This document shows positions 1-36,032 of a stretch of 64,000 bases of DNA, one piece after another (the stretch's first letter is position 1; each line of letters starts with the position of its first letter). The stretch is from the IMG/VR virus record IMGVR_UViG_3300024181_000003, positions 1-64,000 of that record. One strand, 5' to 3'. The stretch is from a virus. Lineage: Duplodnaviria; Caudoviricetes. Position numbers and translations under genes: made by a program. The notes under the pieces are model-generated. The model ran no database searches. It was not told where the DNA came from and saw only the letters and a program-made list of their open reading frames with translations.

Positions 1-216
1 CGTGCTTTGAGTTTCCACCACCGTGACCCAAAAACGAAATTGTTCGGTATCGCTCGTCCGTCAACTGTTAGTTGGGAGAAGATAAAAGCCGAACTCGATA
101 AATGTGATCTGTTCTGTATGAACTGTCACATGGAAATCGAAGAAGAAATCTACTGGGGTGTGGCTCAATCTGGTACAGCAGACGACTGTTACTCGTCCAT
201 CGCGCAAGCGAATTGA
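1..216 (+). CDS. HNH endonuclease, 5'-truncated by window edge; 3' end runs into tRNA-Asn
   Basis: Open frame from base 1 (RALSFHHRDP...ELDKCDLFCMNCHME); same motif layout as the HNH at 2688. Confidence 0.7.
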   Translation, partial: RALSFHHRDPKTKLFGIARPSTVSWEKIKAELDKCDLFCMNCHMEIEEEIYWGVAQSGTADDCYSSIAQAN

Positions 217-242
217 AGGTTCGAATCCTTCTGCCCCAGCCA
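154..242 (+). tRNA. tRNA-Asn(GTT) with atypical long variable arm
   Basis: Acceptor TGGGGTG/TGCCCCA, G73, CCA; anticodon arm GACGA-CTGTTAC-TCGTC; T arm GAAGG-TTCGAAT-CCTTC; 17-nt variable region. Confidence 0.85.
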
Positions 243-251
243 ATTTTCAGC

Positions 252-327
252 AGGAGAATCGTCTAGCGGCCTAGGACGGCGGACTCCAAACCCGCCTACG
301 GTGGTTCAAATCCATCTTCTCCTGCCA
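252..327 (+). tRNA. tRNA-Trp(CCA)
   Basis: AGGAGAA/TTCTCCT acceptor, loop CTCCAAA, GGTTCAAATCC, encoded CCA. Confidence 0.9.
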
Positions 328-388
328 AATTATAGTTCGTGCTGAGAATGTTGCCCGGCAGGCAACGCACAGACCACAAAGTATCAAC

Positions 389-474
389 GGTGTGTTGGCG
401 AAACGGTAGCCGCACATGTTTGCTAAACATGCAGCCGAGAGGCTGTGGAGGTTCAAGTCCTTCACACACCGCCA
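389..474 (+). tRNA. tRNA-Ser(GCT)
   Basis: GGTGTGT/ACACACC acceptor, CATGT-TTGCTAA-ACATG, variable arm CAGCC-GAGA-GGCTG, G73, CCA. Confidence 0.92.
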
Positions 475-482
475 AGTTCTAC

Positions 483-571
483 AGAGGACAGCGAGCAACG
501 GTGCTCATCTGTCTTGAAAACAGCGACACGTTTCACCGCGTGACTCGGTTCGACTCCGGGGTCCTCTGCCA
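483..571 (+). tRNA. tRNA-Ser(TGA)
   Basis: AGAGGAC/GTCCTCT acceptor, loop CTTGAAA, long variable arm, GGTTCGACTCC, G73, CCA. Confidence 0.9.
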
Positions 572-615
572 TTTGAAACAAGTACATCAGAGGCCACAGG
601 CCCAAAAGATGACTT

Positions 616-1134
616 ATGAAAGACCACGAAGTGGATAGACATAGAAATATGTCTGCTCAACTAGGAATGCCTCGGGGTACCGCAGCAAACAGGCTTAGAA
701 AGCTGGTTTTGTTTGACGTGCTCCAAAGACACAAAGAGAACAACTGCTATCGATGCGGAAGTTTGATTGTTTCTGCTGATGAGCTTAGTATAGAGCACAA
801 ACAACCTTGGGAAAAAATAGATGTGAAGTTGTTTTGGGATTTGACAAACATTGCTTTTTCTCATTTGAGTTGTAATTGTGGCGCAGCAAGAAAACCATAT
901 AAAGGAAAACCGTCTCGTCAGCGCATTAAGTGCCCCGATGGGATGTCTTGGTGCCGAACGCACAAACAGTTTCTACTTGAGAACAGATTCAGTAAGCACA
1001 ATCAAACTTGGAACGGCATCAAGCGAGATTGTAAAGAGTGCGAAAAGAAATACAAAGACCGCATTCGATACGGCAAAGTTTCGGAGGACAGCGCAGACGG
1101 TCTGCAAACGGTTTCGAACACCGTGCTACCCTGA
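616..1134 (+). CDS. HNH-type endonuclease with C-terminal Cys/His zinc module; runs into tRNA-Ser(CGA)
   Basis: CYRCG...SIEHKQPW...SHLSCNC core, then CRTH...CKEC; AT-richer than flanks. Confidence 0.75.
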   Translation: MKDHEVDRHRNMSAQLGMPRGTAANRLRKLVLFDVLQRHKENNCYRCGSLIVSADELSIEHKQPWEKIDVKLFWDLTNIAFSHLSCNCGAARKPYKGKPSRQRIKCPDGMSWCRTHKQFLLENRFSKHNQTWNGIKRDCKECEKKYKDRIRYGKVSEDSADGLQTVSNTVLP

Positions 1135-1169
1135 AAGGGGTAACTGTTCAATTCAGTTCTCCTCCTCCA
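1083..1169 (+). tRNA. tRNA-Ser(CGA)-like, non-canonical
   Basis: ACGGT-TTCGAAC-ACCGT anticodon arm, ACCC-TGAAAG-GGGT variable arm, AACTG-TTCAATT-CAGTT T arm, CCA; C7.C66 mismatch, T73, D arm GCAGA-CGG-TCTGC. Confidence 0.65.
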
Positions 1170-1172
1170 TTT

Positions 1173-1246
1173 CCCCTGCAGGTGTGATGGTTGCACCTCC
1201 GACTGAAACTCGGCAGGACGTGGTTCGAATCCACGGCTCGGGACCA
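1173..1246 (+). tRNA. tRNA-Phe(GAA)
   Basis: Loop CTGAAAC, CGTGG-TTCGAAT-CCACG, ACCA end; two acceptor mismatches (CCCCTGC/GCTCGGG). Confidence 0.75.
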
Positions 1247-1374
1247 ATTTTGCGGACGGCCTAGCCAGCCTGTCAAGAGAGCAGTGTACCGTTGGCACCG
1301 GGCGCTTTAGCGACACTATCGTTGAAGGCTTGACACACTTCGCAACGTCGCTCTCGCCGCAATAAAATTTCTGT

Positions 1375-1450
1375 TGAGCGATGGTGTAACTGGCAACACG
1401 GTGGGCTTTGAACCCATCAGATAAAGGTTCGAATCCTTTTCACTCAACCA
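1375..1450 (+). tRNA. tRNA-Gln(TTG) copy 1
   Basis: GTGGG-CTTTGAA-CCCAT, AAAGG-TTCGAAT-CCTTT, T1-A72, CCA. Confidence 0.88.
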
Positions 1451-1555
1451 ATCTTTACCGCTTATGCGGGGCGCACGGTACGCCGAAGTTGTGCTCAACC
1501 CAAGTGGGTTGTTCCGAGGTGCGGTACATGGCCCTCGGCATGATGGAGTACCATC

Positions 1556-1654
1556 ATGCTATGTCCCGTGTGCAAACAGCCAAAAGCGTTTTTGATTTAC
1601 TGTCACCGCTTTAGAAAGCGCGTGTGCAAGCCATGTTGCAGAACACGGCACTAA
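1556..1654 (+). CDS. 32-aa zinc-finger microprotein (below the ORF-track cutoff)
   Basis: MLCPVCKQPKAFLIYCHRFRKRVCKPCCRTRH; CxxC...C...CxxC; GGAG 7 nt upstream of ATG. Confidence 0.55.
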   Translation: MLCPVCKQPKAFLIYCHRFRKRVCKPCCRTRH

Positions 1655-1760
1655 AATTTTAACGGCAGCTAGTCGAGGCCAAGGCCCCCGACCCGTGAAT
1701 CCCATTTAGGGGGTTTGCGGTCAGGACCTCCTAAATATGAGAATCTCACAAGGAGTATCT

Positions 1761-2270
1761 ATGAGAGATCATATAATCTCTTTGTCCCACGAGGACAGAG
1801 AGTTCATACGGAGGCTCTTGATGGCACTTACTCAAGACCTAGCAGCATCGATCAGTACGTTGGCAACAGCGGTTGATCAACTGTCGGCTCGTATCGGTAA
1901 CGGTGGACCGCAGTCTGGGTTCAGCGTTTCTGACGCGAACGTACAGTCAGCAATCGACGGCGTGAACGCGCAGACGGCTCGTCTGAATGCTTTGCTTCCG
2001 GCTTCAAACCCGGGCGCACCGCAAATCAGCAACGTGTCGCCTTCGTCAGCCCCAGTAGGAACCCAGATCACAATCGACGGTTCCGGCTTCGGCGCATCGG
2101 CAGGTAGCAGCACCGTGAAGTTCAACGGTATGGCAACCGCGCCGGACGCGAACAGCAAGTGGAGCGACACCCAGATCACCATCGACGTGCCTAACGGCGC
2201 TACGAGCGGTGGCTTGGTTGTGAACGTGAATGGCGTAGACAGTAATGCATTCGCCTTCACCGTAGCCTAA
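1761..2270 (+). CDS. IPT/TIG (Ig-like) domain protein with helical N-terminus
   Basis: PQISNVSPSSAPVGTQITIDGSGFG...VKFNG...WSDTQITIDVP; AAGGAG RBS; alternative start 1821. Confidence 0.75.
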   Translation: MRDHIISLSHEDREFIRRLLMALTQDLAASISTLATAVDQLSARIGNGGPQSGFSVSDANVQSAIDGVNAQTARLNALLPASNPGAPQISNVSPSSAPVGTQITIDGSGFGASAGSSTVKFNGMATAPDANSKWSDTQITIDVPNGATSGGLVVNVNGVDSNAFAFTVA

Positions 2271-2271
2271 A

Positions 2272-2493
2272 ATGGCAACGCTCAACATCAGTACGCAGTC
2301 ATTGACTGCGAACTGGGGTGGTATCCTCGGAGTCGTTCTAGCGGTCTGGAATCAATACAGCCCAACGCTATCGAACTTCTTCACGAACCATCCACACATT
2401 GCACTCTGGGCTTCAATCGGAGCGATGGTAGCAGCTTTCTACGTTCAGGCGACGGCACCCGCAAAAGCGGTCACACCCGTAGCTAAGGCGTAA
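2272..2493 (+). CDS. small 2-TM membrane protein (holin-like)
   Basis: Two hydrophobic segments, basic C-terminus. Confidence 0.45.
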   Translation: MATLNISTQSLTANWGGILGVVLAVWNQYSPTLSNFFTNHPHIALWASIGAMVAAFYVQATAPAKAVTPVAKA

Positions 2494-2534
2494 ACAAAAT
2501 CCCCGGGGCCTAAAAATCCCGGGACTATTTCTGT

Positions 2535-2609
2535 TGCTCTCTCGTTCAACTGGCAGGACAACGGTCTTTGAAACCGTGAATGAAGGTTCGAATCCTTCAT
2601 GAGCAACCA
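2535..2609 (+). tRNA. tRNA-Gln(TTG) copy 2
   Basis: ACGGT-CTTTGAA-ACCGT, GAAGG-TTCGAAT-CCTTC, CCA; mismatches at 6:67 and 7:66. Confidence 0.8.
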
Positions 2610-2687
2610 ATTTAGGTTTTCGGGTAGCTCCCGAGAACTAGATGGGGAGAGCCTATACTCTCCCTGTCGCTCTTATAGGAGAGTCAA

Positions 2688-3182
2688 ATGAAGATATGTT
2701 CGAGATGCGGCGTCCCAAAACACGTTCGTTATTTCGGTTTCAGAACGAATGGCCGTCCCCGATCTTGGTGCAAGAAATGCAAAAGAGAACACGACAGACG
2801 TAGTTACCACACCAAGCCGAAACAAAAAGAGTCTGTGCGAGAAAGCAACAAAGAGCACATAAAACGTAACAAAGACTTTGTTAGAGATCATCTAATGTCT
2901 CACCCTTGTGTGGATTGCGGAGAGGCAGACATCGTTGTTCTTGATTTTGACCATGTTAGAGGCGAGAAGGTAAACAACGTCGCAAACATGGTGAATCAAG
3001 GACACAGCTTAGAATCTCTCAAAGAAGAGATCGCTAAATGCGAAGTTCGTTGCGCCAACGACCACAGACGTCGAACACACGAACGAAGAAAAAGTTTATT
3101 GCCCGATAGTGCAACCGGTAGCACGCCGCTCTCTGAAAGCGGAAGTTTTGGTCCGAATCCAAATCAGGCAACCATTTTATAA
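2688..3182 (+). CDS. HNH endonuclease; last 25 codons read through tRNA-Gln(CTG)
   Basis: N-terminal CSRCG...CKKC zinc finger; CVDCG...LDFDHV...KCEVRCANDH core. Confidence 0.8.
   Translation: MKICSRCGVPKHVRYFGFRTNGRPRSWCKKCKREHDRRSYHTKPKQKESVRESNKEHIKRNKDFVRDHLMSHPCVDCGEADIVVLDFDHVRGEKVNNVANMVNQGHSLESLKEEIAKCEVRCANDHRRRTHERRKSLLPDSATGSTPLSESGSFGPNPNQATIL
3100..3174 (+). tRNA. tRNA-Gln(CTG)
   Basis: TGCCCGA/TCAGGCA acceptor, CCGCT-CTCTGAA-AGCGG, T loop TCCGAAT (C in place of T55), CCA. Confidence 0.82.
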
Positions 3183-3679: not shown

Positions 3680-3979
3680 GTGTCTGTGCGGTTGGATATG
3701 GAAATGACTAAGAAAGAGCTTGAGAAAAAAGTTGCAGACCTCGAAGCGAAAGTCGCAGAGCTAACCTCTGCGATGCTCGCTTTGTCTTTGCGCCAAATTA
3801 AAGAGTATGTGTTTCTTCCGGCACAGCAACCAGTCACCGTGCCGAACGTTCCGTACACGCCGTACCCGTATCCGTACATTGGCGACCCAGTGCCCGGCAC
3901 GCCGGGCTACTCGACGATCACATGCGGCACCAACGTGTTGACATCGAAAGGCTCAGGCAACTTTCAAATTTTTCAGTAA
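3680..3979 (+). CDS. hypothetical protein, coiled coil plus Pro/Tyr-rich tail
   Basis: KKELEKKVADLEAKVAEL heptads; PYTPYPYPY. Confidence 0.5.
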   Translation: MSVRLDMEMTKKELEKKVADLEAKVAELTSAMLALSLRQIKEYVFLPAQQPVTVPNVPYTPYPYPYIGDPVPGTPGYSTITCGTNVLTSKGSGNFQIFQ

Positions 3980-4098
3980 AAGTTTCTGTGGCTCAACCAC
4001 AGACAATGGTAATTCGCTAGCACGTTCAAAGCGTCTTCCCAAAAAGCATCCCGCAGGTGGCGAACCTATCGGCGGGGTGTACACATAAGGAAAACCAA

Positions 4099-4713
4099 AT
4101 GCAAGTAGTAGCAGATTTTCAAGTAAATGGTTTGTTCCCGGCTACCGTCGGTGGCACCGGAACGACCGTGAAGTACTTCCCTCGTAACGTAGCCAGCGCA
4201 GCTGGTGCGTCTTGGGTCGCAGCACCTGCAACCCCGTCCTCGACCTCACCGGTCGGCGCACTCTGGGTTCCGGGCGACAACAAGCTGAACGGCCAGCACT
4301 TCCGTGTCAACGTATCCGGCTCGGCAATCGCAGGCGCTTCGGCAGGTTCGGAAACAGTTACTTTCGGCTTGTACGCAGTTACCGGCTCGTTGGCATCTCC
4401 GACCTACACTCTGTTGAACTCGTCGGCGGTTCTGACCCCGGCGGTTGACGGCGTGCAGCACAACTTCTCGATCGTTGCTGACATGTTCGGCAACACGGAC
4501 AGCGGCATCGTCGGCGGTTCGCAGTACACCGTGATCGACAACACCGTAACGGCGACGGCAGCACTTGCCAGCTCGCTGACCGGCATCAACTTCGGTTCGG
4601 GCAACACGTCGCTGTATCAGGCGGCTCCGTTCGGACTCGTAGTCGGTGTGACCTTCTCTGTGTCGAACTCGGCCAACGCAGCCAAGCTGTACCAGTTCAA
4701 CATCGAAGCGTAA
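4099..4713 (+). CDS. beta-rich structural/decoration protein
   Basis: AAGGA RBS; Gly/Ser/Thr-rich; strong phage codon bias. Confidence 0.6.
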   Translation: MQVVADFQVNGLFPATVGGTGTTVKYFPRNVASAAGASWVAAPATPSSTSPVGALWVPGDNKLNGQHFRVNVSGSAIAGASAGSETVTFGLYAVTGSLASPTYTLLNSSAVLTPAVDGVQHNFSIVADMFGNTDSGIVGGSQYTVIDNTVTATAALASSLTGINFGSGNTSLYQAAPFGLVVGVTFSVSNSANAAKLYQFNIEA

Positions 4714-8398: not shown

Positions 8399-10729
8399 AT
8401 GGCACTGACAGATGCCCAGAGAAAGCAGAATCAACGTGATCGAGACGCGGGACTCCCAGAGACGTACAAGCGGGAGGTCAAGCCGTCACGGGAAGAGATC
8501 GAAGTCCGCATCACGCAGCACCAACGTGATATGGAATGGGCGCTGGCACAGGACGCCACAGGCAACTTTTACAAGAGCGAAGCTCGTAGTTGCGTTGACC
8601 TTCTAGCTATCTACGAGGGTGCTGACATCACGGACAAAGAGTCCGTTGAGGAAGAGGACCCGGCGGAAAAGAAGAAGGCCAAAAAGAAAAAGAAGAACAT
8701 CCCGAACCCATCCAAGAGTAAGATCACGATCAAGGCCGTGGTCTACGAACAAGAGATGGAGATCGGTAACGGCGTCAAGGTCAAGGTGACCAAGCCGATC
8801 GAGCCTGATTGCATCGACGATTGCGACCACGTCAACTGTGGCCACGATCATCGCCGTGATAAGGAAGTCGATTACGTCATTTCGTTTCAGCACTGGCTGG
8901 ACCTCCGCGCCAAGGCACGCAAGGACCTGTTCTGGCTGGGCCGCCTACTGGGCTACGGACTGTACCACATGTCCCACCAGTATGTCTGCGAACAGTTCGT
9001 GCAGAAAGATTTCGAAGGCAAGTACTTCCCGGGCTACACGCTAGATGACTTCCATAAGGCGATGCGCCAACAAAAGCGTTTAGCTAACATGGGCACACCT
9101 CCGACAGGCGTCGAGTTGTGCGACATGCAGACCCGTGAAATGCTGTTGCTGGAACCCCGTTCGTCGTACAAGTCGACGATCAACCGTATCGATACGGTTC
9201 AGTGGCTGATCAACTGCCCTGACATCCGTATCATGTTCATCACGGCGTTCAAAGACTTGGCAAAAGAGTTTGCGGTCAGCATCAAGAAGGAACACTTCTG
9301 GCTGCCGTTGAGCGCTGAACCGTCTGCGTTCCAGATGCTGTTTCCAGAGTATATTCTCCGGGGCATCGACGGAACGTCTGAACAAGACATGGAATGCCCG
9401 GCGCGAAATCACCCGCAGCCGCAGGCAAGCGTCTGGGCCACCTCGATGGAGTCGTCATCGACTGGTAAACACTGCGACATTTGTAAGTTTGACGACGCTG
9501 TCGACCCGAAGAACTCTGCTGACGAAGAGATGCGCGAGAAATTGCGCTTCAAGATCGACGGCTACGACGACGTCCGTGACCCGTGGGGATTCACAGATTT
9601 TTGTGGAACCCGCTACTTCACGATGGACTATTACGGCACCCGCCAACTCCCTCAGGAGGAAGACTCCAAGGATGTGGCACCGATACGGTACAGCTGCCGT
9701 GGTTCGTGGATACTGAATCAAGAGGACCAGTTCGCCTACGATCGTGGGGAATTGACCTGCCGCGACATCATCAAGCAGCGGCGTGCTAAACTCGTTCACC
9801 CATATAAGCTAACGTGGGCCGAACTCGACAAGATTCTTAAAAAGAAAAAGCTGCGCGGCTTCAAGAACCAGCAGCTCAACGAAGCGACAGACGAAGCGAC
9901 CGAAGACGTCTACATCAACCAGTTTAATCTGGACGTTCTCCGGGCGCACACGTATGCTCGCACCGCAGCACCGGACTTCACAGAGATGCGTGTTATCCAG
10001 ACATGGGATATCGCATACGGTAAGCATAAGACATCCGATTTCTCCGTCGGCGTCACAGCAGGAATCTACCTGACCAAGCAGAAACAGGAAGCGATCGTCA
10101 TTCTCGACGTGGTTCTCGACAAGTGGAAGTCGTCAGAGCTACCGATGCAAATGGCGGCATTTTACGAGAAGCACAAACATCTGGGCATCCAGAAGGTTTA
10201 CATCGAAGAGGCATTGGGCGTCAGATTCCTGATCAACAACATTAGCAACTTTTGCAAGATTCGTGGTCTGGACTATTCATCTAAGATCATGGTCGTGCCG
10301 ATGTCAACAAAGGCCAACGCCAAAAGAAACAGAATCAAGAACCTTGAGTTCTTGCTCGGCCAAGAACGTTTGTGGTTCGTATCAGGCTCGTGGAACGATG
10401 AAATCTTCAAACAGTTTACGAAATATCGCGGCGGCAAGAGCACGGCGTACCGAAAGGACGACGGGCCAGATGCTATCGCAATCGTAACCGAAAGAATGTC
10501 GCCCACGGCACTGACCAGCAACCCCGACCCGAAGGTAGTAGAACAGGAACACGAGAAGAGACAGCAGAAGGAAGCAATGATGGCTGTCTATAATCGTATG
10601 CACGGCGGACCATCGCCTACAGCACAGAAACCAACTGTGCAGGCACCGGAACCACCACCTACCGACCCCCGTCGTGATCAATTACGGCGACTGATAGGAA
10701 AGATTCTACCGCCCGGGATGAGAATATAA
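8399..10729 (+). CDS. terL: terminase large subunit with N-terminal extension
   Basis: EPRSSYKST Walker A-like, GKHCDICKFDD Walker B, TWDIAY/SDFS/EE/KDDGPDA RuvC-like nuclease motifs; precedes portal. Confidence 0.9.
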   Translation: MALTDAQRKQNQRDRDAGLPETYKREVKPSREEIEVRITQHQRDMEWALAQDATGNFYKSEARSCVDLLAIYEGADITDKESVEEEDPAEKKKAKKKKKNIPNPSKSKITIKAVVYEQEMEIGNGVKVKVTKPIEPDCIDDCDHVNCGHDHRRDKEVDYVISFQHWLDLRAKARKDLFWLGRLLGYGLYHMSHQYVCEQFVQKDFEGKYFPGYTLDDFHKAMRQQKRLANMGTPPTGVELCDMQTREMLLLEPRSSYKSTINRIDTVQWLINCPDIRIMFITAFKDLAKEFAVSIKKEHFWLPLSAEPSAFQMLFPEYILRGIDGTSEQDMECPARNHPQPQASVWATSMESSSTGKHCDICKFDDAVDPKNSADEEMREKLRFKIDGYDDVRDPWGFTDFCGTRYFTMDYYGTRQLPQEEDSKDVAPIRYSCRGSWILNQEDQFAYDRGELTCRDIIKQRRAKLVHPYKLTWAELDKILKKKKLRGFKNQQLNEATDEATEDVYINQFNLDVLRAHTYARTAAPDFTEMRVIQTWDIAYGKHKTSDFSVGVTAGIYLTKQKQEAIVILDVVLDKWKSSELPMQMAAFYEKHKHLGIQKVYIEEALGVRFLINNISNFCKIRGLDYSSKIMVVPMSTKANAKRNRIKNLEFLLGQERLWFVSGSWNDEIFKQFTKYRGGKSTAYRKDDGPDAIAIVTERMSPTALTSNPDPKVVEQEHEKRQQKEAMMAVYNRMHGGPSPTAQKPTVQAPEPPPTDPRRDQLRRLIGKILPPGMRI

Positions 10730-12847
10730 ATGTCTGACCAAGACCAGCGTATAGCGCAGAAGATTCACGATCTCTACATCGAACCGGCGGCGCAGATCAC
10801 CGCAGACAACACATCGATTGACGAAGAGACGAATACGATCACGTACAATGATTCTGCTGCAGTCAAGCTTGTCATTGACGACGCTGAGAGAGTAGACACC
10901 TATCTGAACATTCAGCAGTGGGCTAACGGCTGGACCATGGCCGACCTATTGTACCAGAGCCCGGCAACGCAGTCGGCATTCGACGGCGGCAACCAAGGGC
11001 AGGCATCGGTACCGAAGTACATGGTATCGAACCACATCAGTTCGATCGTGCCGAAGGTTATGGAGGGCATCTTCTACGAAGAGCCGCCGTTCCTTCTTCG
11101 CCCACGTCCGAACACCAAGCAGGAAGTCGTTACGGCCAAGACCGCGATCTTCTCTGCTCAACTCGATGCTATGCACTTCGAGGAAGAGGTCGAGCGTGCG
11201 CTTGAGCAGTGCGCCCTGCTAGGTACCGGCATCCTCAAGTGGGGATACGTCGAGTACACCAAGAAGATGCGCCGCTATCGTCGCACGGCAGACAAGACTC
11301 CGCTGACGCAGGCAGACGGCAAGATCAAGATGATCGACACCCCGGCCTCAGACGAGTACGAGGTCGAGTTCTACGACAAGAAAATTTCACACCCGTGGAT
11401 TAAGTGGACGGATATCCGTACCGTTCTCGTTAACCCGGGCTGCCGCGTGGGCGACATTCGCCGTGCAGGCTGGGTCGTCTACAGAGACTACGCAACCTAC
11501 GACGATCTGAACCTCCTACGTGACGTTGCAGGCTACAACATCCCGTCAGAAGAAATCCTAAAGGATATCTTCCTGAACGGAATTACGAGCGGCGCAGACA
11601 ACATCACCATGACTCTCCCAGAGGGCATGATGGGCTATTTGCAGCACTCGATGCCACGCAACTACAAGACATCAACCGACCCAATGCAGGCCCCGCTTGA
11701 GATTCTTGAGCGTTGGGACAACGACAGGGTAATTGTCGTGCTCTGCTACAACGGTCACAACATTTTGATTCGAAACGAAGCCAACCCGTATGGGAAGATT
11801 CCGTTTCTGTCCTTCAACTGGCGCAATATTCCTGACAACTTCTATGGTCAAGGGCTTGGCTTGTTGATCGGTTCTGAGCAGATCGTTGAGCAGGGTGTAA
11901 CCAACCTAGCTCTCGACCTGCTGAACTACGGATTGCAGCCGACAGCGGTTCGCAAGAAAGGGTTCCAAACACCGACGCAGGACGTAAGATGGCGGCAGGG
12001 CGGCATTATCGACGTTGAAGAAGACGTTGACAAGGCTTTCAAGTTCCTGCAGATGCCACCAGTGCCGGGTGAAGCATGGCAGTTCATTTCACAAGCACAG
12101 TCCGCTGGCGCAGCAACATCGGGCGCTAACGAACAGGTGATTCAGGGTGCGGGTGCCGCAGGCGTTAAATCGCTCGGCATGCGCTCGGGTACCGGAGCGG
12201 CGGCAGTCATTCAGGCAAACGCCAGCCGTCTTGACGGCCCGACGAGCCGTTTCATCAGACAGTGTTTCGTTCCATGGTTGTACATGATGGACGAGTTGAA
12301 CAACTTGCTGTTGCCGACATCGGTAATCAGAGACATATTGGGAGAAGAACTTGGTGAACCGTACTTGGTTGACCACGTTGACTTCCGTAACGCCAAGATC
12401 GAGTACGAAGTTTTGGCAGGCGCACACTTGGGTGCCAAGAAAGAGATGGCTCAGGCCCTCCCGATCGTCATCCAGTTGTTGAACAACCCAACGTTCGTGG
12501 CAAACGCCAACGACGCAGGCTATCAGTTCGACGCACCGGCAATCTTCAAGGCGTTCACCGACGCAGCAGGCTGGAAGTTCAGTCAGTCGTTCCTACGTCC
12601 GATGACACCAGACGAACAGAAGCGTCACCAAGCAAATTCACCAGCAGCGTTGCAGGCCTCGCAGGCCGCAGCCACCCAGAAGATGGCCCAACAGAAGTTC
12701 GAACAGGAACAACAGTTGGAAAACCAGAAGCAACTGGGTAAGGCAGGCAACGAAGCATTCCGTGCCTCAATCGAGCACGCAACAGAACCAGAGCTAATGA
12801 ATGGCGAACCGGGCAATAAAGGGTTTGGTTCGACAACGACTCTATAA
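10730..12847 (+). CDS. portal protein
   Basis: 705 aa after terL; NPYGKIPF...FYGQGLG...QRGGIIDV-type portal motifs. Confidence 0.85.
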   Translation: MSDQDQRIAQKIHDLYIEPAAQITADNTSIDEETNTITYNDSAAVKLVIDDAERVDTYLNIQQWANGWTMADLLYQSPATQSAFDGGNQGQASVPKYMVSNHISSIVPKVMEGIFYEEPPFLLRPRPNTKQEVVTAKTAIFSAQLDAMHFEEEVERALEQCALLGTGILKWGYVEYTKKMRRYRRTADKTPLTQADGKIKMIDTPASDEYEVEFYDKKISHPWIKWTDIRTVLVNPGCRVGDIRRAGWVVYRDYATYDDLNLLRDVAGYNIPSEEILKDIFLNGITSGADNITMTLPEGMMGYLQHSMPRNYKTSTDPMQAPLEILERWDNDRVIVVLCYNGHNILIRNEANPYGKIPFLSFNWRNIPDNFYGQGLGLLIGSEQIVEQGVTNLALDLLNYGLQPTAVRKKGFQTPTQDVRWRQGGIIDVEEDVDKAFKFLQMPPVPGEAWQFISQAQSAGAATSGANEQVIQGAGAAGVKSLGMRSGTGAAAVIQANASRLDGPTSRFIRQCFVPWLYMMDELNNLLLPTSVIRDILGEELGEPYLVDHVDFRNAKIEYEVLAGAHLGAKKEMAQALPIVIQLLNNPTFVANANDAGYQFDAPAIFKAFTDAAGWKFSQSFLRPMTPDEQKRHQANSPAALQASQAAATQKMAQQKFEQEQQLENQKQLGKAGNEAFRASIEHATEPELMNGEPGNKGFGSTTTL

Positions 12848-13282: not shown

Positions 13283-13327
13283 AATCCCGACAGGGACGCT
13301 GTAGAATGAATGAACCAAGAGGACAAA

Positions 13328-14608
13328 ATGAGTAAATTTACTCTCGACTGGCTAAAGTCAGTCACGCAGGCCGAGTTTATGGCCGAAGCACGCAAAATTC
13401 AGCAGGGTTCTCAGGAACTCGCCGAGCTAAACGCCGTTCTGTCGTCAGAAGAGGGCAAAAAGATCGCCAGCGACATGCTGAACGACCCGGACTACGTCCC
13501 AGTCTCAAAGCGTGAGCCAACTCCTGAGGAAGCGGAGCAGATCGCAGCTGATATCGCCACCGCCACCGCTCAGGCAGCAGAGCAAGAGGCCGCTCGTGCA
13601 GCCGCCGCAGCAGAAGAGGCCGCCAAGGCCGCTGCAGCAGCCGCCCCGAAGGTCGAAGAGCGCAAAAAGATCGTCGTTGACTATCAAGCAACCGACGAAA
13701 ATGGCAAACCGATTGGCCGCCCGACGCACATCGAGGGCTGGACCAACGAAGAAGTCGTAGAAAAATTGAAAGCGGCGCACATCAACGCCGTCCGATACGC
13801 AGAGCGTGTCAAAACCAACCGCTTCAAGCAATCTGCCGAAGCCGTTGCAGTCATTGAGACGACCCAAGTAGCAAAGCAGATGAAGCAAGAGAGCGAAAAG
13901 CTCGCTGCTGAGGCCGTCGCAGAAAAAGACCCCGTTAAAATGCGGGAGTCGGTCGAAAAATCGGTTCAGGCAGAGCGCGAAGCTCGCATCGCCGAAGAAA
14001 CCGCCAGACAGCACGGCAAGATCATTGCTGACACTTGGATGGAAGACCACAAAGAAGACTTTGTACCTTGTTTGGCATCCTCAAACATCATAGGTGAGTA
14101 CATGAAAGCTAACAATCTTTCACTCACTTATGAGAATCTTGAGAAGGCCTTCGAGGCCACGAAAACTCGACTGCCAAAGGTCGAGAAACAACCAGCAGTC
14201 GAACCAACCCCTGTTACAAAGGTGGACAATCCGCCCGAAGTAACACCCGCAACGCCAGCCGCAGCCCCGGTGTTAATCACGCCGCCTGCCGCAGAGCCAG
14301 CGGTGACAGAACCAACAGCGAACCCGCCAGCGGTGATACCTACCGCAGCGGCTCCCGCCTCGAACTCTACGCCTGTAGCAGCGGACAAATCCGCAGAAGC
14401 TGCCCGTAGACCGGGGGTGAACGGCAGTGTTATGCCGGGAACGATGTCTGCAGCACGTCCCACGGTACAAGCACAACCGACTGACACCAGAGCCACACTA
14501 CTGAAAGAGATTGCAAAGATGCCAGCGCAGGAATACCGCAAGAAGCTTCGTGACCCAAATTACGTCAAGAAGTTGAATGCGGCTGGAATCAAAGTAGTCG
14601 GTTCATAA
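13328..14608 (+). CDS. capsid scaffolding protein
   Basis: Helical Glu/Ala-rich body, Pro/Ala linker, C-terminal basic helix; directly upstream of the capsid gene. Confidence 0.75.
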   Translation: MSKFTLDWLKSVTQAEFMAEARKIQQGSQELAELNAVLSSEEGKKIASDMLNDPDYVPVSKREPTPEEAEQIAADIATATAQAAEQEAARAAAAAEEAAKAAAAAAPKVEERKKIVVDYQATDENGKPIGRPTHIEGWTNEEVVEKLKAAHINAVRYAERVKTNRFKQSAEAVAVIETTQVAKQMKQESEKLAAEAVAEKDPVKMRESVEKSVQAEREARIAEETARQHGKIIADTWMEDHKEDFVPCLASSNIIGEYMKANNLSLTYENLEKAFEATKTRLPKVEKQPAVEPTPVTKVDNPPEVTPATPAAAPVLITPPAAEPAVTEPTANPPAVIPTAAAPASNSTPVAADKSAEAARRPGVNGSVMPGTMSAARPTVQAQPTDTRATLLKEIAKMPAQEYRKKLRDPNYVKKLNAAGIKVVGS

Positions 14609-14643: not shown

Positions 14644-14732
14644 ATGAGCGGACCAACTCCCTCAGCATCAAACGTATCAAATGTACTCACCGCACAGGCT
14701 ATCCTGTTCGACAAGGAACTTATTCCTAACCT
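14644..14732 (+). CDS. major capsid protein exon 1 (29 codons + CT)
   Basis: MSGPTPSASNVSNVLTAQAILFDKELIPN; joins exon 2 in frame as ...IPNLKGETDAF... Confidence 0.88.
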
Positions 14733-14938
14733 AAATTAACTTTGGGTCATCCGCGAGGATGAGAATTTTCTCTAATGGACTTGAACTCTGAGACTGAGAA
14801 CAAGGCGCAAGCGAAAGCAGCGTGAGAGACTAAATGAGAAAACGCCGAAAGGCGATGCGATAGTCCGTTCTGTTGGTAACATGAACCAACAGAGGTTGAC
14901 AGAAATGATCAACCCCTCGAAAGAGGTAACAAATAAAG
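14733..14938 (+). ncRNA. group I self-splicing intron, 206 nt, no ORF
   Basis: P1 ACCT|AAA:TTTGGGT with U.G at the splice site; P2 TCATCC-GCGA-GGATGA; P3 TTTTCTC:GAGAAAA; P4 CTTG:CAAG; P7 GACT:AGTC; P8 CGCC-GAAA-GGCG; P9, P9.1, P9.2; terminal G14938; P10 AAAG:CTTT. Confidence 0.92.
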
Positions 14939-15881
14939 AAAGGGTGAGACGGACGCATTTGTGGCCGTAGCAGAACGCCGTGTGCAGGGATTGCACATGG
15001 GCATCAACCGTCAGTTCTTCCAGTACAACACCCTATCGGGTGACACTGTACAGGCCGCTGACGGCAACGTTGGAGCACCAGAAGTTATCTCCCAGATCAG
15101 CGCCCCGGCGCAGGTCGGCGAGTGGAACAACTACTCCAACTTCTCGGCATTCGCAATCGCTTCGTCGATTGACGAATTGGTCGGGAACTCGGCAGTCGAA
15201 CTCGGCTATCAGGCCGGTCAGTCGATTTCCGAACTGTACAGCGCAGTAGCAGACAGCGCATCTTCTGTGGACGGCAACGTTTCGCAGAACTCGCTTCTGT
15301 CTTCGCCGTACACGCTTGATCTTGCGACCATCCGCGAGATGAAGCAGCAGCTGGTGTCGAACGACGTGCTTCCTTGCAAAAAGGGCATGTTCTACGGCGT
15401 CATCTCGCCGAACGTTCTGGGCGACATCTACAACGCAACGACCGTCAACAACTCGATCGTTGATTTGTTCAAGCGCACAGACGGCGGCATGAAGAAGTTC
15501 GACGAAATCGCTGGCTCTGACCAGACGAAGGAAATCGAACTGCCGGGCACGAACATCATGTTCCGTCAGACCCCGTTTGTCACGAAGACGGCTAACTACC
15601 AGTCCTCGGGCAAGACCGCATACCGCACCTACATCTTCGGCAACTACGCGATGATCGGTGTGTGGCTGCAGGTTCCGGGCGACACGGACCTTGATGAAGG
15701 CGACTGGCGTACGATCGACTGCAAAGTCGTGACCGACGCTCCTCCGTCTTCGTTCGACCCGACGGCAACCATCGGTGGCTGGGCATCTTACCGCTTCCAC
15801 CAGACGGTTACCCTTCCGCCTGCAACGGGTACCAACACCCAGCGCATCCGCTACATCGATAGCGTTCCGGCTATTCAATAG
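14939..15881 (+). CDS. major capsid protein exon 2 (spliced product 343 aa)
   Basis: Position after scaffold; HK97-like size; 89+943 nt = 344 codons. Confidence 0.85.
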
Positions 15882-15894
15882 CCATAACAATTTC

Positions 15895-15923
15895 TTGACA
15901 CGGGTTGCAACCTGTGCTAAGAT
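15895..15923 (+). promoter_or_regulatory. sigma70-type promoter for the HNH gene
   Basis: TTGACA-17 nt-TAAGAT with TG extension. Confidence 0.7.
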
Positions 15924-15982
15924 TAAGAGTAGGAGGGTGCGCCTAGAACGCATCCTCCGACTCACTCTTTCTAGGAGAGCGT

Positions 15983-16564
15983 ATGACGCAATTAAACGAT
16001 TTGACCGCACGCATTTTTGGTCGGCTAACTGTAGAAAAAAGACTCCCTAACCATACCACGTCTGGGGGCAACTCGGTGGTGATGTGGCTCTGCAAATGCA
16101 TGTGTGGTACAGCGATATCCGTTTCGTCCAACTCATTGGTTGAAAATAAAACAAAATCATGTGGTTGTTTACAACGAGAAAGCACTAGAAAGTTGGGGTG
16201 GGCCAACACCAAACATGGCGGATATTCCGCATCTGCTACATACGAAGAGCAAGTTAAACACCAAGCCCTTGTGAACATAAAAGAAAGAGCCAGACGCAGA
16301 GGCTACGATTCCGATTTGACGGTCGAAGACCTTCCAGAGCTAACGGCGTTCTGTCCTGTGTTGGGTATAAAATATAATCGAGGCTCATTGAAAGACAAGA
16401 ACGCATCCCCGTCGATAGACAGAAAAAACACAAATCTTCCCTATCTTAAAAAGCACAGAGATAATCTTGTTTTCATTTCGCATCGAGCCAACAGAATTAA
16501 AACAGACGCTACTGTCGCTGAGATTAGAAAAGTTTTAGAATACGTAGAAGCACAAGGACAATAA
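15983..16564 (+). CDS. free-standing HNH (His-Me finger) endonuclease
   Basis: FGRLTV..WLCKCMCG..KSCGC N-domain; CPVLG..SPSIDRK..ISHRANRIK; AT-rich. Confidence 0.85.
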   Translation: MTQLNDLTARIFGRLTVEKRLPNHTTSGGNSVVMWLCKCMCGTAISVSSNSLVENKTKSCGCLQRESTRKLGWANTKHGGYSASATYEEQVKHQALVNIKERARRRGYDSDLTVEDLPELTAFCPVLGIKYNRGSLKDKNASPSIDRKNTNLPYLKKHRDNLVFISHRANRIKTDATVAEIRKVLEYVEAQGQ

Positions 16565-16565
16565 A

Positions 16566-17237
16566 ATGGGTGTAGACAATAGAATTGAAACAGTAGCAGG
16601 TTTGAAACACGTCGAGGACCCGATCAGAGAGCATCATGATCTCCCTACGACCCGGGCGACCATCCAAGAAATCTTGGCTGGTGGAACACCCAACTGGGTG
16701 AAGTGGCCCGAAGACTATAAAGAGTACGCTCGTGAGGCTTTTGCAGCCGAGAAAGCAATCTCCGATGAGATGGCCGAGCAGTACCAGATCGAAGACCAAG
16801 AGCACCTGACAAACGAGGTAGCTCGCAAGATTAATCCGATGTCCACTGACCAGTTTTTGTACAAACTTCGTCAGGCTGGCATCAAATGCTTCACTGTCTA
16901 CAACGGATTGCCCCAGACCTTGGGTCTATGGTGCATCCCTCCCAAGCGGACCAGCGTTGCCCGGTACATCTGCTACGTGCAGGACCCGGCAATGTACGAG
17001 TGGTCTGTTCTTCGTGTAGACCGTCACGGCATTCCGATCGGTGAGAAGTTCCGTGGATGGCGCACGGTCATTACTGAACTGATCAAGAAAGACATCCTGA
17101 CCGAATATCAGGCACATCAAGTTTTTGGACACGCCTCTCAACACCCATGCTACGCCCGGTACCAACGCACGTTGTGGGAAATCCGCAACGGCAAGAAGTT
17201 CACCGACGTCGCTATTGAAGAGAAGGATGTCCTTTAA
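16566..17237 (+). CDS. hypothetical protein
   Basis: 223-aa ORF with phage codon usage. Confidence 0.65.
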   Translation: MGVDNRIETVAGLKHVEDPIREHHDLPTTRATIQEILAGGTPNWVKWPEDYKEYAREAFAAEKAISDEMAEQYQIEDQEHLTNEVARKINPMSTDQFLYKLRQAGIKCFTVYNGLPQTLGLWCIPPKRTSVARYICYVQDPAMYEWSVLRVDRHGIPIGEKFRGWRTVITELIKKDILTEYQAHQVFGHASQHPCYARYQRTLWEIRNGKKFTDVAIEEKDVL

Positions 17238-34058: not shown

Positions 34059-36032
34059 ATGCCAGTATCAATTCCGGGCAGTATGCAATCGTTCGACACA
34101 CAGTCGAATGGTCAAACGGATGCAGTTGATGCATTGCAGAAGTATATGCAGCCCACCACGCCGGGTCAACCGAGCGGAGATGGTGCTGCGCCTGATCTAA
34201 CAGGCGGCGTCGGAGAGCTACCACCGTCACCGGGCGCGTTCCCGCGTCCCGGGTCGTTCGGTGATAAGCTATCGGACAGCCTACGCTCGGTGATTAAGTC
34301 GCCAGCGGCTCCTGCGGTCATGGCACAGCCTGCTGGATGGGCTAAGATGATGATCGGTGCAACCATGGATGCGCTGTCTGGTAAGGGCGGCGCATTGCTA
34401 GGCAATTTGGGTGACGCGGCAGCAGCCACGGCACCAGTGCCCGAGGGCGGTGGCGCGTTGACCGGCGTGCTGAGAACGCTAGGTGCTGGACAGCAACGTG
34501 CTGCGGCAGAGAAGCAGCAGACCTTTGAGAATAAGTTGAAGACCGACAAGGCTGCGGACGAGCACCTTGAGAACGAAGCTCGCGTTGCTTTACTACAGGG
34601 TCAGACCCGCTTGAACGCAATCAACGTCACCAAGGCTGAGAACGAGGTTCAGGACGGCATCTACAACATGAACAAGACCGTCAGCGATCAACTAGCCAAG
34701 AACCATCACATCGAGAAGGGTGTCAGCCAAGCACAGCTCGACCAGATGTTGAAGGCCAACCCCGACTACTTGAAGACGCATCGTGCGTTGCCGATTGGCC
34801 GTGAAGAGATTCTTGATGGTAGCGGCAAACCGACCGGCAAGTTCGATCAGATGTGGGATGTTATTACTGCAGACCCACTCGATAAGAACCAACATGTTCA
34901 GCCGGATGCTAAGACCGCTTCCGACTGGAAGGCTGCGGGAATCGAAGTTGACCCGAAGCAAAACCTTAGCGCCGACGACATGATCACGTTGAACAATCGT
35001 GCAACCGGAATCTTGCTTGTCAAGAACGCAACCAACAAGGCGAGAGAAGAGGCCTTGACACAGGAACAGTTCGATCAGGTCAAGCAGGACATGGAGTCGC
35101 CTGCCGTCCAGCACGCAATCAGTGCGGACACGGCACGTCCTCTGCAAGGTCTGCAGAATGATTATAACCTGCACGTTCAGACAATTAAGAAGGACCAACA
35201 ACAGATTGCTGCGATCTCCGCTAAGAACCCGAACGACCCACAACTGGCTCAAATACAGTCGGACCTCGCCAACAAGCAGACAGAGCTGGGCGCACTGCAG
35301 CACTTCATGATCTACGGCGTCGATGCCAAGATGCGCGAAGACGAGCAGAAGGCGAGATTCGAAGAAGAGCAGGCAGCGTGGCAGAATCGTCGTGCTGCGG
35401 CCATGGAGAGAAAAGAGTCTGTGGACAAGTCTCTGGCGCAGTCTTACCAGATTCAGAACAAAGAGTTCGACACGATGCGTAAGCCGATCTCCGAGAAGTT
35501 GGGCGAGTACACGAACCTGCAGATGGGCCTTGATATGCGTAACGCAGAAGGCGATGCGATCGTCGCACCTATGTTGCTAAAGGCATTGGTGGCAGGCGGC
35601 GGCGTCCGTATCACTCAGGCCGAAATCAACATGGTGCTCGGAGCACGTTCGTTGCTCGGAACAACCGAAGCGGAAATGAGAAAGATTCTGTCTGGTCAAA
35701 AGTTCTCTGACGAACAGCGTCAGCAGATTCGTACTCTATCCGAGTTTCTGCAGAAGAAGATTCAAGCCAAGAAGCAGATTCTCGAAGCGGGTCAGGCATC
35801 TATCGACGCAGCTGACACCGTTGCTGGACAACGCCAAGCTGTAAGAGATACCCGTCAACAGATCGACGAGTTGGATGCAGGGGTAAATGCAAACAAGCAG
35901 GACCCGGACGTGATCGGGCGCAAGCTTGGTGCCAGCCAGCATGTTTCGACACCAGATGGCAAGACAACGATCTACAACGTCAACAACCAGTGGGTAACCG
36001 CTGACGGCAAGCCATACGTGGCAGGGAAGTAA
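34059..36032 (+). CDS. DNA ejection protein 2
   Basis: 657-aa helical Gln-rich protein in ejection order. Confidence 0.65.
   Translation: MPVSIPGSMQSFDTQSNGQTDAVDALQKYMQPTTPGQPSGDGAAPDLTGGVGELPPSPGAFPRPGSFGDKLSDSLRSVIKSPAAPAVMAQPAGWAKMMIGATMDALSGKGGALLGNLGDAAAATAPVPEGGGALTGVLRTLGAGQQRAAAEKQQTFENKLKTDKAADEHLENEARVALLQGQTRLNAINVTKAENEVQDGIYNMNKTVSDQLAKNHHIEKGVSQAQLDQMLKANPDYLKTHRALPIGREEILDGSGKPTGKFDQMWDVITADPLDKNQHVQPDAKTASDWKAAGIEVDPKQNLSADDMITLNNRATGILLVKNATNKAREEALTQEQFDQVKQDMESPAVQHAISADTARPLQGLQNDYNLHVQTIKKDQQQIAAISAKNPNDPQLAQIQSDLANKQTELGALQHFMIYGVDAKMREDEQKARFEEEQAAWQNRRAAAMERKESVDKSLAQSYQIQNKEFDTMRKPISEKLGEYTNLQMGLDMRNAEGDAIVAPMLLKALVAGGGVRITQAEINMVLGARSLLGTTEAEMRKILSGQKFSDEQRQQIRTLSEFLQKKIQAKKQILEAGQASIDAADTVAGQRQAVRDTRQQIDELDAGVNANKQDPDVIGRKLGASQHVSTPDGKTTIYNVNNQWVTADGKPYVAGK

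Follow-up and report, generated by a model that had tools for sequence, protein, structure and literature searches.

The major capsid gene of the uncultured, soil-type phage analysed here (Caudoviricetes; IMG/VR record IMGVR_UViG_3300024181_000003, of which positions 1 to 64,000, hereafter the window, were used) is interrupted near its 5' end by a 206-nt insert that, judged by its predicted pairings and their covariation among relatives, is a group I intron by structural definition. Taken as a whole, the explanation that we favour, with a probability of about 0.85, is that the capsid pre-mRNA undergoes group I splicing and that the intron moves by collaborative homing with an HNH endonuclease encoded directly downstream. 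It builds on the observed restoration of the open reading frame, the capsid fold of the product, the covarying RNA structure, the guides that are specific to each site and the co-occurrence of HNH genes with introns. Catalysis by the RNA, and its autonomy from protein factors, are what we infer from these. Coordinates of all features are given in Table 1.

The two parts of the gene can be read directly. The ATG at 14644 starts an open reading frame of 31 amino acids that stops at the TAA in the P1 loop, so that, as the initial annotation had proposed, translation of the unspliced message would end just past the junction. The second open reading frame has 306 amino acids when read from GTG 14961, and its frame remains open back to 14937. 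Automated annotation had been predicted to report this part as a truncated capsid protein, which proved to be the case: two deposited automated products (P0001 and P0002, 100% identical and found on 6-8 contigs) are the 306-aa truncated protein. Deleting 14733-14938 yields ...FDKELIPN(L)KGETDAFVAV... in a register identical to that of uninterrupted homologues, and the restoration of the frame is exact. The predicted spliced mRNA encodes a capsid protein of 343 amino acids; at the nucleotide level its exon junction joins ...CCTAACCT to AAAGGGTGA..., and the junction peptide is ELIPNLKGETDAF. A database search with the exon-2 translation returned 290 relatives, mostly of 340-345 aa and unbroken through ...ILFDKELIPNLKGETDAFVA..., and approximately 100 uninterrupted full-length homologues (340-345 aa) read straight over the position of the junction, in agreement with the product ...ELIPNL-KGETDAF... 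of 343 aa previously derived from the window by splicing out 14733-14938. An exact search for the spliced-junction 35-mer in metagenome contigs did not find it.

On the basis of gene order, a structure model and identity to a cultured relative, the host gene is assigned to HK97-fold major capsid proteins; the initial annotation had likewise taken it for a major capsid gene. It follows genes for TerL (8399-10729), portal (10730-12847) and a scaffold-like protein of 432 aa rich in Ala, Glu and Pro (13310-14608). Of 29 full-length homologues, 23 match phrog_1357 'major head protein'. Among cultured phages the only relative is the major head protein of Tunturiibacter phage Tunturi_3, which is uninterrupted and 38% identical; a blastn search with the capsid locus gave no match to cultured phages. 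An AF2 run on a shallow alignment reached a pLDDT of 35, and the matching PDB profile search returned chance kinesin matches; it was replaced by a model of the uninterrupted homologue P0006 built on a deep alignment from a representative search, with a pLDDT of 86.7. The best Foldseek matches of this model are the HK97-fold phage capsids N4 (9e99), GP4 (8h89) and Pan3 (9vye) with E of approximately 1e-12 and TM of 0.6-0.69, the capsids of Moo19 and B2 are also among the best, and 312 matches were obtained at E <= 0.001. Residue 30, where the intron is located, falls in the N-arm of the protein.

Table 1 Features of the interrupted capsid gene, its predicted intron and the neighbouring nuclease gene. 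Positions are those of the window.
Feature	Position	Strand	Remarks
Capsid exon 1 (29 codons + 2 nt; N-arm of capsid protein)	14644..14732	+	Aligns with residues 1-30 of uninterrupted homologues
Predicted ORF-less group I intron, 206 nt	14733..14938	+	R1 139 bits, E = 2e-25; covariation; MFE z = -5.9
P1, exon ACCU 14729-32 / guide GGGU 14744-47 (U14732.G14744 wobble)	14729..14747	+	
P1 intron-side extension AAA/UUU	14733-35 / 14741-43	+	Loop 14736-40 contains in-frame TAA
In-frame TAA in P1 loop	14737..14739	+	Would end translation of unspliced message
P10, AAAG/CUUU	14939-42 / 14740-43	+	
P2 hairpin CAUCC-GCGA-GGAUG	14748..14761	+	Compensatory changes in L004 at 14750/51 with 14758/59
P3 (14766-72/14836-42), enclosing P4, P5, P6, P6a and 5' strand of P7	14766..14842	+	
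P4; P5	14780-83/14801-04; 14786-88/14796-98	+	P4/P5 block 94% paired in family
P6; P6a	14805-08/14820-23; 14811-12/14817-18	+	100% paired in family
P7, 5' strand; 3' strand	14826, 14828-32; 14861-66	+	
P8 (14843-46/14851-54), J8/7 AUGCGA (14855-60) and P7 3' strand	14843..14866	+	
Putative guanosine-binding pair	G14828-C14865	+	Adjoins bulged A14827
P9 (14870-76/14886-92), P9a (14894-99/14909-14), P9b (14915-18/14923-26)	14870..14938	+	
Intron 3' tail UAACAAAUAAAG	ends at 14938	+	Terminates in omega-G 14938
Capsid exon 2	14939..15881	+	AAAG at its start may pair with 14740-43 as P10
GTG chosen by automated gene callers	14961..14963	+	Gives truncated 306-aa capsid
Promoter-like TTGACA-17-TAAGAT ahead of HNH gene	15895..15923	+	10/12 positions, consensus match only
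Free-standing HNH/EndoVII-superfamily endonuclease gene	15983..16564	+	Candidate homing enzyme for residue-30 site

The insert follows U14732, ends in G14938 and has stops in all three frames. The DNA alone permits four equivalent boundaries, as the insert can slide by up to three bases, and only 14733/14938 fits the U...G rule. The P1 and P10 pairings, the U.G pair at the splice site and the terminal G that the initial annotation had read from the letters were all located at these boundaries. Folding of the insert gives -69.8 kcal/mol (z = -5.9 compared to shuffles, with 0 of 200 shuffles as good).

We used a sample of 80 IMG/VR loci encoding relatives of the capsid protein, together with the window's own segment. 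About half of the capsid genes in the 80 loci are uninterrupted and the others carry one to three or more insertions; including the window segment, 47 insertions were found. The set of protein-optimal boundaries includes an exon-end U together with an insert-end G in approximately 40 of the 47, compared to a chance expectation of about 1 in 8, given that each insertion has one to five equivalent boundaries. The inserts of 165-247 nt can all be aligned as a single RNA family. We aligned 29 distinct copies by sequence only (MAFFT) and wrote the structure on from the window sequence, the tested elements being P3, P4, P5, P6, P6a, the P7 pseudoknot, P8, P9 and P9a. Paired cells amount to 98.5%, versus 35-41% with partners slid, and 33 of 43 pairs have changed on both sides (7 of 7 in P3), a value that 0 of 500 shuffles reached. 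This covariation, together with guides that follow the exon, upholds the earlier assignment of the core pairings to group I. One G-C pair of P7 (alignment columns 73/121) is invariant in 29/29 copies beside a bulge at column 72, while the pair flanking it switches between G-C and A-U in a ratio of 15:14; conservation also extends to the As on either side of P5 (columns 25 and 40) and to AUGCRA in J8/7. A P7 G-C pair next to a bulge is the classical geometry of a guanosine site, and the pair would be expected to serve that function here.

The guide sequence differs at each of 11 mapped sites and tracks the exon: GGGU is found for ...ACCU, GGGAAUA for ...UAUUCCU, GCCCUU for ...AAGGGU, GUGGAAU for ...AUUCCAU and GUCCAC for ...GUGGAU. 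Mean P1 length is 5.1 bp with a copy's own exon versus 2.9 bp with foreign exons. These 11 base-exact sites lie at codons 21, 28, 29, 32, 275, 288, 292, 310, 313, 315 and 317, and hits of R1, a covariance model of the core, indicate further sites near codons 289, 306-308, 327 and 339. R1 finds 65 copies in capsid relatives, 65/65 on the gene strand, and one copy only in the 77.8 kb record of the window. An in-frame stop comes early in 32/32 introns examined, the median end of the frame lying 8.5 nt into the intron versus 28 nt for the other frames. Several genes hold more than one copy. The locus L072 (record G001, 97 kb) has three introns at 2828-2999, 3727-3937 and 4064-4273 (172, 211 and 210 nt), three introns of the same family per capsid gene are also present in L065, L066 and L068, and in L035 and L066 two copies stand back to back inside one insertion of approximately 450 nt. 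A second, unrelated intron family was observed at capsid codon 92/93 in L079 (1971-3000) and L083 (2374-3000), where the introns encode ORFs of 309 and 151 aa.

The length of 206 nt given in the initial annotation stands, but its description of the intron as minimal does not extend to the family, which has relatives of 165-174 nt. Short members are those in L007 (2835-2999, 165 nt), L049 (2831-2999, 169 nt), L070 (2823-2994) and L072 (2828-2999), both 172 nt, and L074 (2826-2999, 174 nt). Relatives of 165-174 nt are without P9a and P9b, and some are also without P2.

The mechanism that we propose for the window is as follows. The end of exon 1, ACCU, would pair in the pre-mRNA with the guide GGGU and place a U.G wobble at the 5' splice site, and the core would fold into its P3-P8 and P4-P6 parts with a P3/P7 pseudoknot. 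A guanosine held at the invariant P7 G-C pair would then attack after U14732. Next, the guide would hold exon 2 through P10 and exon 1 would attack after omega-G 14938, giving a ligated mRNA from which the 343-aa capsid protein could be translated. Ribosomes on RNA that is left unspliced would halt seven bases into the intron, at the TAA. As for the DNA, the HNH enzyme may cut capsid alleles without the intron in co-infecting relatives, and the intron would be copied in by repair together with the nuclease gene, so that the intron would persist and spread with the free-standing HNH by collaborative homing.

The nuclease gene starts 101 nt downstream of the stop codon of the capsid gene. Its product matches phrog_374 at 2e-20 and phrog_1035 at 4.6e-10 and keeps all residues that are invariant in the family; its cleavage specificity would, on the proposed mechanism, be for the intron-less site. 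A GC-rich hairpin, GGAGGGTGCG...CGCATCCTCC, lies at 15927-15958 between the promoter-like site and the ribosome-binding site of the HNH gene, and may have a role in regulating or processing the transcript of the nuclease. Since the window carries other HNH genes, adjacency alone would be weak evidence for homing. The slot after the capsid gene (window 15882-16565) varies among dereplicated relatives. It is empty in 14, and otherwise filled with an EndoVII-like gene (PF02945), a GIY-YIG gene with NUMOD3 or an HNH gene of the window type. The locus L004 has an EndoVII-like gene (PF02945; 2876-3364) where the window has HNH, with flanks that are 96% identical on both sides, the left one ending at the capsid stop and the right one resuming at the start of the next gene. 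As L004 shows, the slot is swappable as a nuclease cassette between near-identical phages.

Introns are more frequent in capsid genes that are followed by a slot nuclease (31 of 44 loci versus 0 of 14 with an empty slot; p = 2e-6, ignoring kinship), and each type of nuclease tends to accompany introns of a particular region. Of the 16 loci that have an intron at residues 21-33, 11 contain a window-type HNH, whether free-standing or intronic, versus 0 of 42 others (p = 2e-8, with loci counted regardless of shared ancestry). For the EndoVII-like family, introns at codons 306-314 are found in 9 of 22 loci with it and 0 of 22 without it (p = 0.0014, ignoring kinship); for GIY-YIG, introns at codons 316-327 are found in 7 of 15 and 3 of 29, respectively (p = 0.019, again ignoring kinship); and for the HNH subtype of L081 and L083, introns at codons 290-292 are found in 2 of 7 and 0 of 37 (p = 0.022, kinship likewise ignored). 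In L012, L056 and L038 the window-type HNH lies inside the codon-29/30 intron itself, within the P1 loop and 5' to the guide, and the ribozyme of L056 is 92.7% identical to the ORF-less intron of L074. The HNH tree did not recover the direction between free-standing and intronic copies.

The main competing account of mobility, which we regard as unlikely though the strongest of the alternatives, is that the downstream HNH is unrelated to the intron and merely occupies a nuclease hot spot, the intron being immobile or moving in another way, e.g., by reverse splicing. That the post-capsid slot takes any of three nuclease families, or none, is consistent with a hot spot, as is the presence of a same-site intron in L004 beside an EndoVII-type gene and the pairing of a GIY-YIG gene with the residue-30 intron in L007. 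Reverse splicing, for its part, predicts that guides are common to different sites, and such cases were observed: an exon end ...CCU with its guide is shared between codons 29/30 and 313 (residues 30 and 314), and ...AAGUU between 275 and 315 (residue 316). If sites are colonised by reverse splicing, this sharing is the pattern that would be expected. However, the confinement of window-type HNH to loci with N-terminal introns, and its occurrence inside that very intron in relatives, speak against an unrelated neighbour, and we consider collaborative homing of the intron with the adjacent HNH most likely from the comparison of loci.

A further alternative accepts the RNA as a genuine group I intron but supposes that it is not autonomous, with a chaperone or maturase-like factor of the phage or host being needed for splicing at the rate that a capsid gene demands. 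Reliance on proteins is common among small group I introns, the RNA described here is highly compact and has no stabilising domain of the P5abc type, and P9a and P9b are missing from the relatives of 165-174 nt. On the other hand, the helices are GC-rich, P2 is capped by a GNRA-type loop, the predicted fold is very stable (-69.8 kcal/mol), and a candidate factor is absent from the coding content of the intron. Dependence on a protein seems to us improbable, and self-splicing is predicted for the 206-nt intron.

It is also conceivable, albeit very improbable, that the insert is a dead remnant and that the phage makes an N-terminally truncated capsid protein from GTG 14961. Gene callers choose this GTG, which has a GGGUGAG stretch 12 nt upstream. 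Against a remnant, exon 1 evolves under purifying selection with synonymous changes predominating (80 synonymous and 17 non-synonymous codon differences compared to intron-bearing relatives), residues 31-37, encoded ahead of the GTG, hardly vary among homologues, and the N-terminal region of the protein matches solved capsid proteins. Compensating changes also maintain the RNA helices between very close relatives: compared to L004, with flanks at 96% identity, the intron of the window differs at 33 of 206 positions, mostly as compensating pairs in P2, P3, P4, P5, P6 and P9.

The initial annotation had suggested a search with the Infernal group I model as a check, and here the result was negative. 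Rfam at gathering threshold gave no group I match in the whole window, and RF00028 at E <= 10 gave no match in sub-stretches of 227-701 nt or in the relatives' copies of this intron family. Rfam matches to the L19 leader, sR9 and HOTAIRM1 were rejected as chance hits. As a positive control, RF00028 detects the psbA intron of cyanophage S-PM2 with 87.8 bits, and it detects the introns of L079 and L083 weakly (27.7 and 33.4 bits, with a cut-off of 50). R1 in turn gave no match on the S-PM2 genome, so the S-PM2 psbA intron and that of the window are not one family. A recent survey describes the Rfam group I seed as incomplete and liable to miss phage variants (PMC11878797). Because of the detection of S-PM2, the weak detection of L079 and L083 and the incomplete seed, the miss by RF00028 is apparently a gap in the model's coverage of this lineage and not the failure of a defining feature. 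The absence of an Rfam match is also all that would favour an intein, a translational bypass, a group II intron or an assembly artefact, and these have a negligible probability, given the stops in all three frames (intein), the size of 206 nt, the P3/P7 pseudoknot and the U...G boundaries (group II), the recurrence of the insert in independent samples, namely L004 and the 6-8 contigs with P0001/P0002 (artefact), and the sequence, from which bypass was rejected together with the other three.

The family extends beyond these capsid genes. Stretches with the core motif GACTAA...GATGCRATAGTC number at least 119 in IMG/VR, and among the motif matches listed, 103 copies in 79 loci (L085-L163) were confirmed with R1; several loci (L128, L110, L100 and L134) have 3-4 copies. 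Of ten flanking exons sampled, five encode major head proteins that belong to other, unrelated PHROG families (283, 247/544 and 14242), one encodes a ribonucleotide reductase and one has a weak match to a tail protein. With blastn of the insert against cultured phages, matches were obtained in two gaps that split genes. In MW202674.1 (L002, approximately 16872-17088) a P22-like coat gene is annotated as two CDS with the intron in the gap (R1 93 bits), and in Roseobacter phage CRP-118 (OR420741.1; L001, approximately 35056-35455) the ribonucleotide reductase is annotated as two CDS (R1 84 bits). The capsid gene of the window phage and those of many relatives are annotated as truncated or split, and two GenBank records contain the same error. 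As the family is invisible to the standard Rfam model, surveys of phage introns that rely on the model would undercount.

Capsid-gene introns of phages and genes with three introns are already documented. The major capsid gene of mycobacteriophage LittleE has a group I intron of 819 bp with an endonuclease gene, whose splicing was demonstrated with RT-PCR and N-terminal sequencing, and the tail gene of BAKA has an ORF-less intron of 265 bp (PMC3706429); a capsid-gene intron of lactococcal phage Tuc2009 is cited in the same paper. Similar to LittleE and BAKA, the intron of the window resides in a highly expressed virion gene, with an exon-end U, an intron-end G and a gene that is split in annotation, and both ORF-less and nuclease-bearing forms occur. 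Unlike in LittleE, the intron is ORF-less with only 206 nt, its splicing is predicted from sequence, and the family fills many sites of one capsid gene. For several group I introns in one phage gene there are precedents in orf142 of phage Twort, with three introns according to a title in the reference list of PMC6669764, and in the DNA polymerase genes of Bastillevirinae, with two or three (PMC11878797). Those introns have a mean of approximately 800 nt and many carry nuclease ORFs, whereas the introns described here have approximately 170-250 nt, belong to one family and occupy a capsid gene.

Collaborative homing has been described for the psbA intron of S-PM2 with the free-standing F-CphI, and for pairs in T3/T7-like phages (PMC3984707, PMC6083498, PMC10448857). 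As in S-PM2, a conserved gene with a small ORF-less group I intron is followed immediately by a free-standing endonuclease of the EndoVII/HNH superfamily, although the intron lineages differ, RF00028 finding that of S-PM2 only and R1 missing it. The relatives of the window go beyond S-PM2 in having the predicted end state, in which this intron itself contains a nuclease of this family, while cleavage specificity is here an expectation from the distribution of the genes. As one capsid gene family includes intron-free genes, introns with a free-standing nuclease and introns that contain the nuclease, as well as three nuclease families each associated with an intron site of its own, the route of collaborative homing becomes directly testable.

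The group I intron of Azoarcus pre-tRNA-Ile has approximately 205 nt and is referred to as the 'smallest natural' one; an explicit statement on the smallest group I intron was not found in the literature searched. It resembles the intron of the window in similar length and in a minimal architecture without large peripheral domains. It differs in its host, as the intron of the window is in an mRNA and not in a tRNA anticodon loop, no sequence relationship was shown between the two, and the family described here has members of 165-174 nt. If active, these members would set a lower size limit for natural group I ribozymes, shorter than Azoarcus, and would be useful as small scaffolds.

What is new is thus a compact lineage unseen by the standard model, with many sites per capsid gene, members down to 165 nt and site-specific pairing with three nuclease families. 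A bolder reading, which we put forward tentatively and at less than even odds, is that this is an unrecognised minimal group I lineage specialising in phage major capsid genes and undetected by current covariance models, that its members of 165-174 nt may be the smallest natural self-splicing introns, that it may spread by reverse splicing through a guide of 4-7 nt, and that each of the three nuclease families may fix introns at its own cleavage site. If true, free-standing nucleases and intron-encoded ones would be the two ends of a natural series. Elsewhere in the window, a cluster of six tRNA genes is located at the left end (154-3171; Rfam tRNA 49-62 bits).
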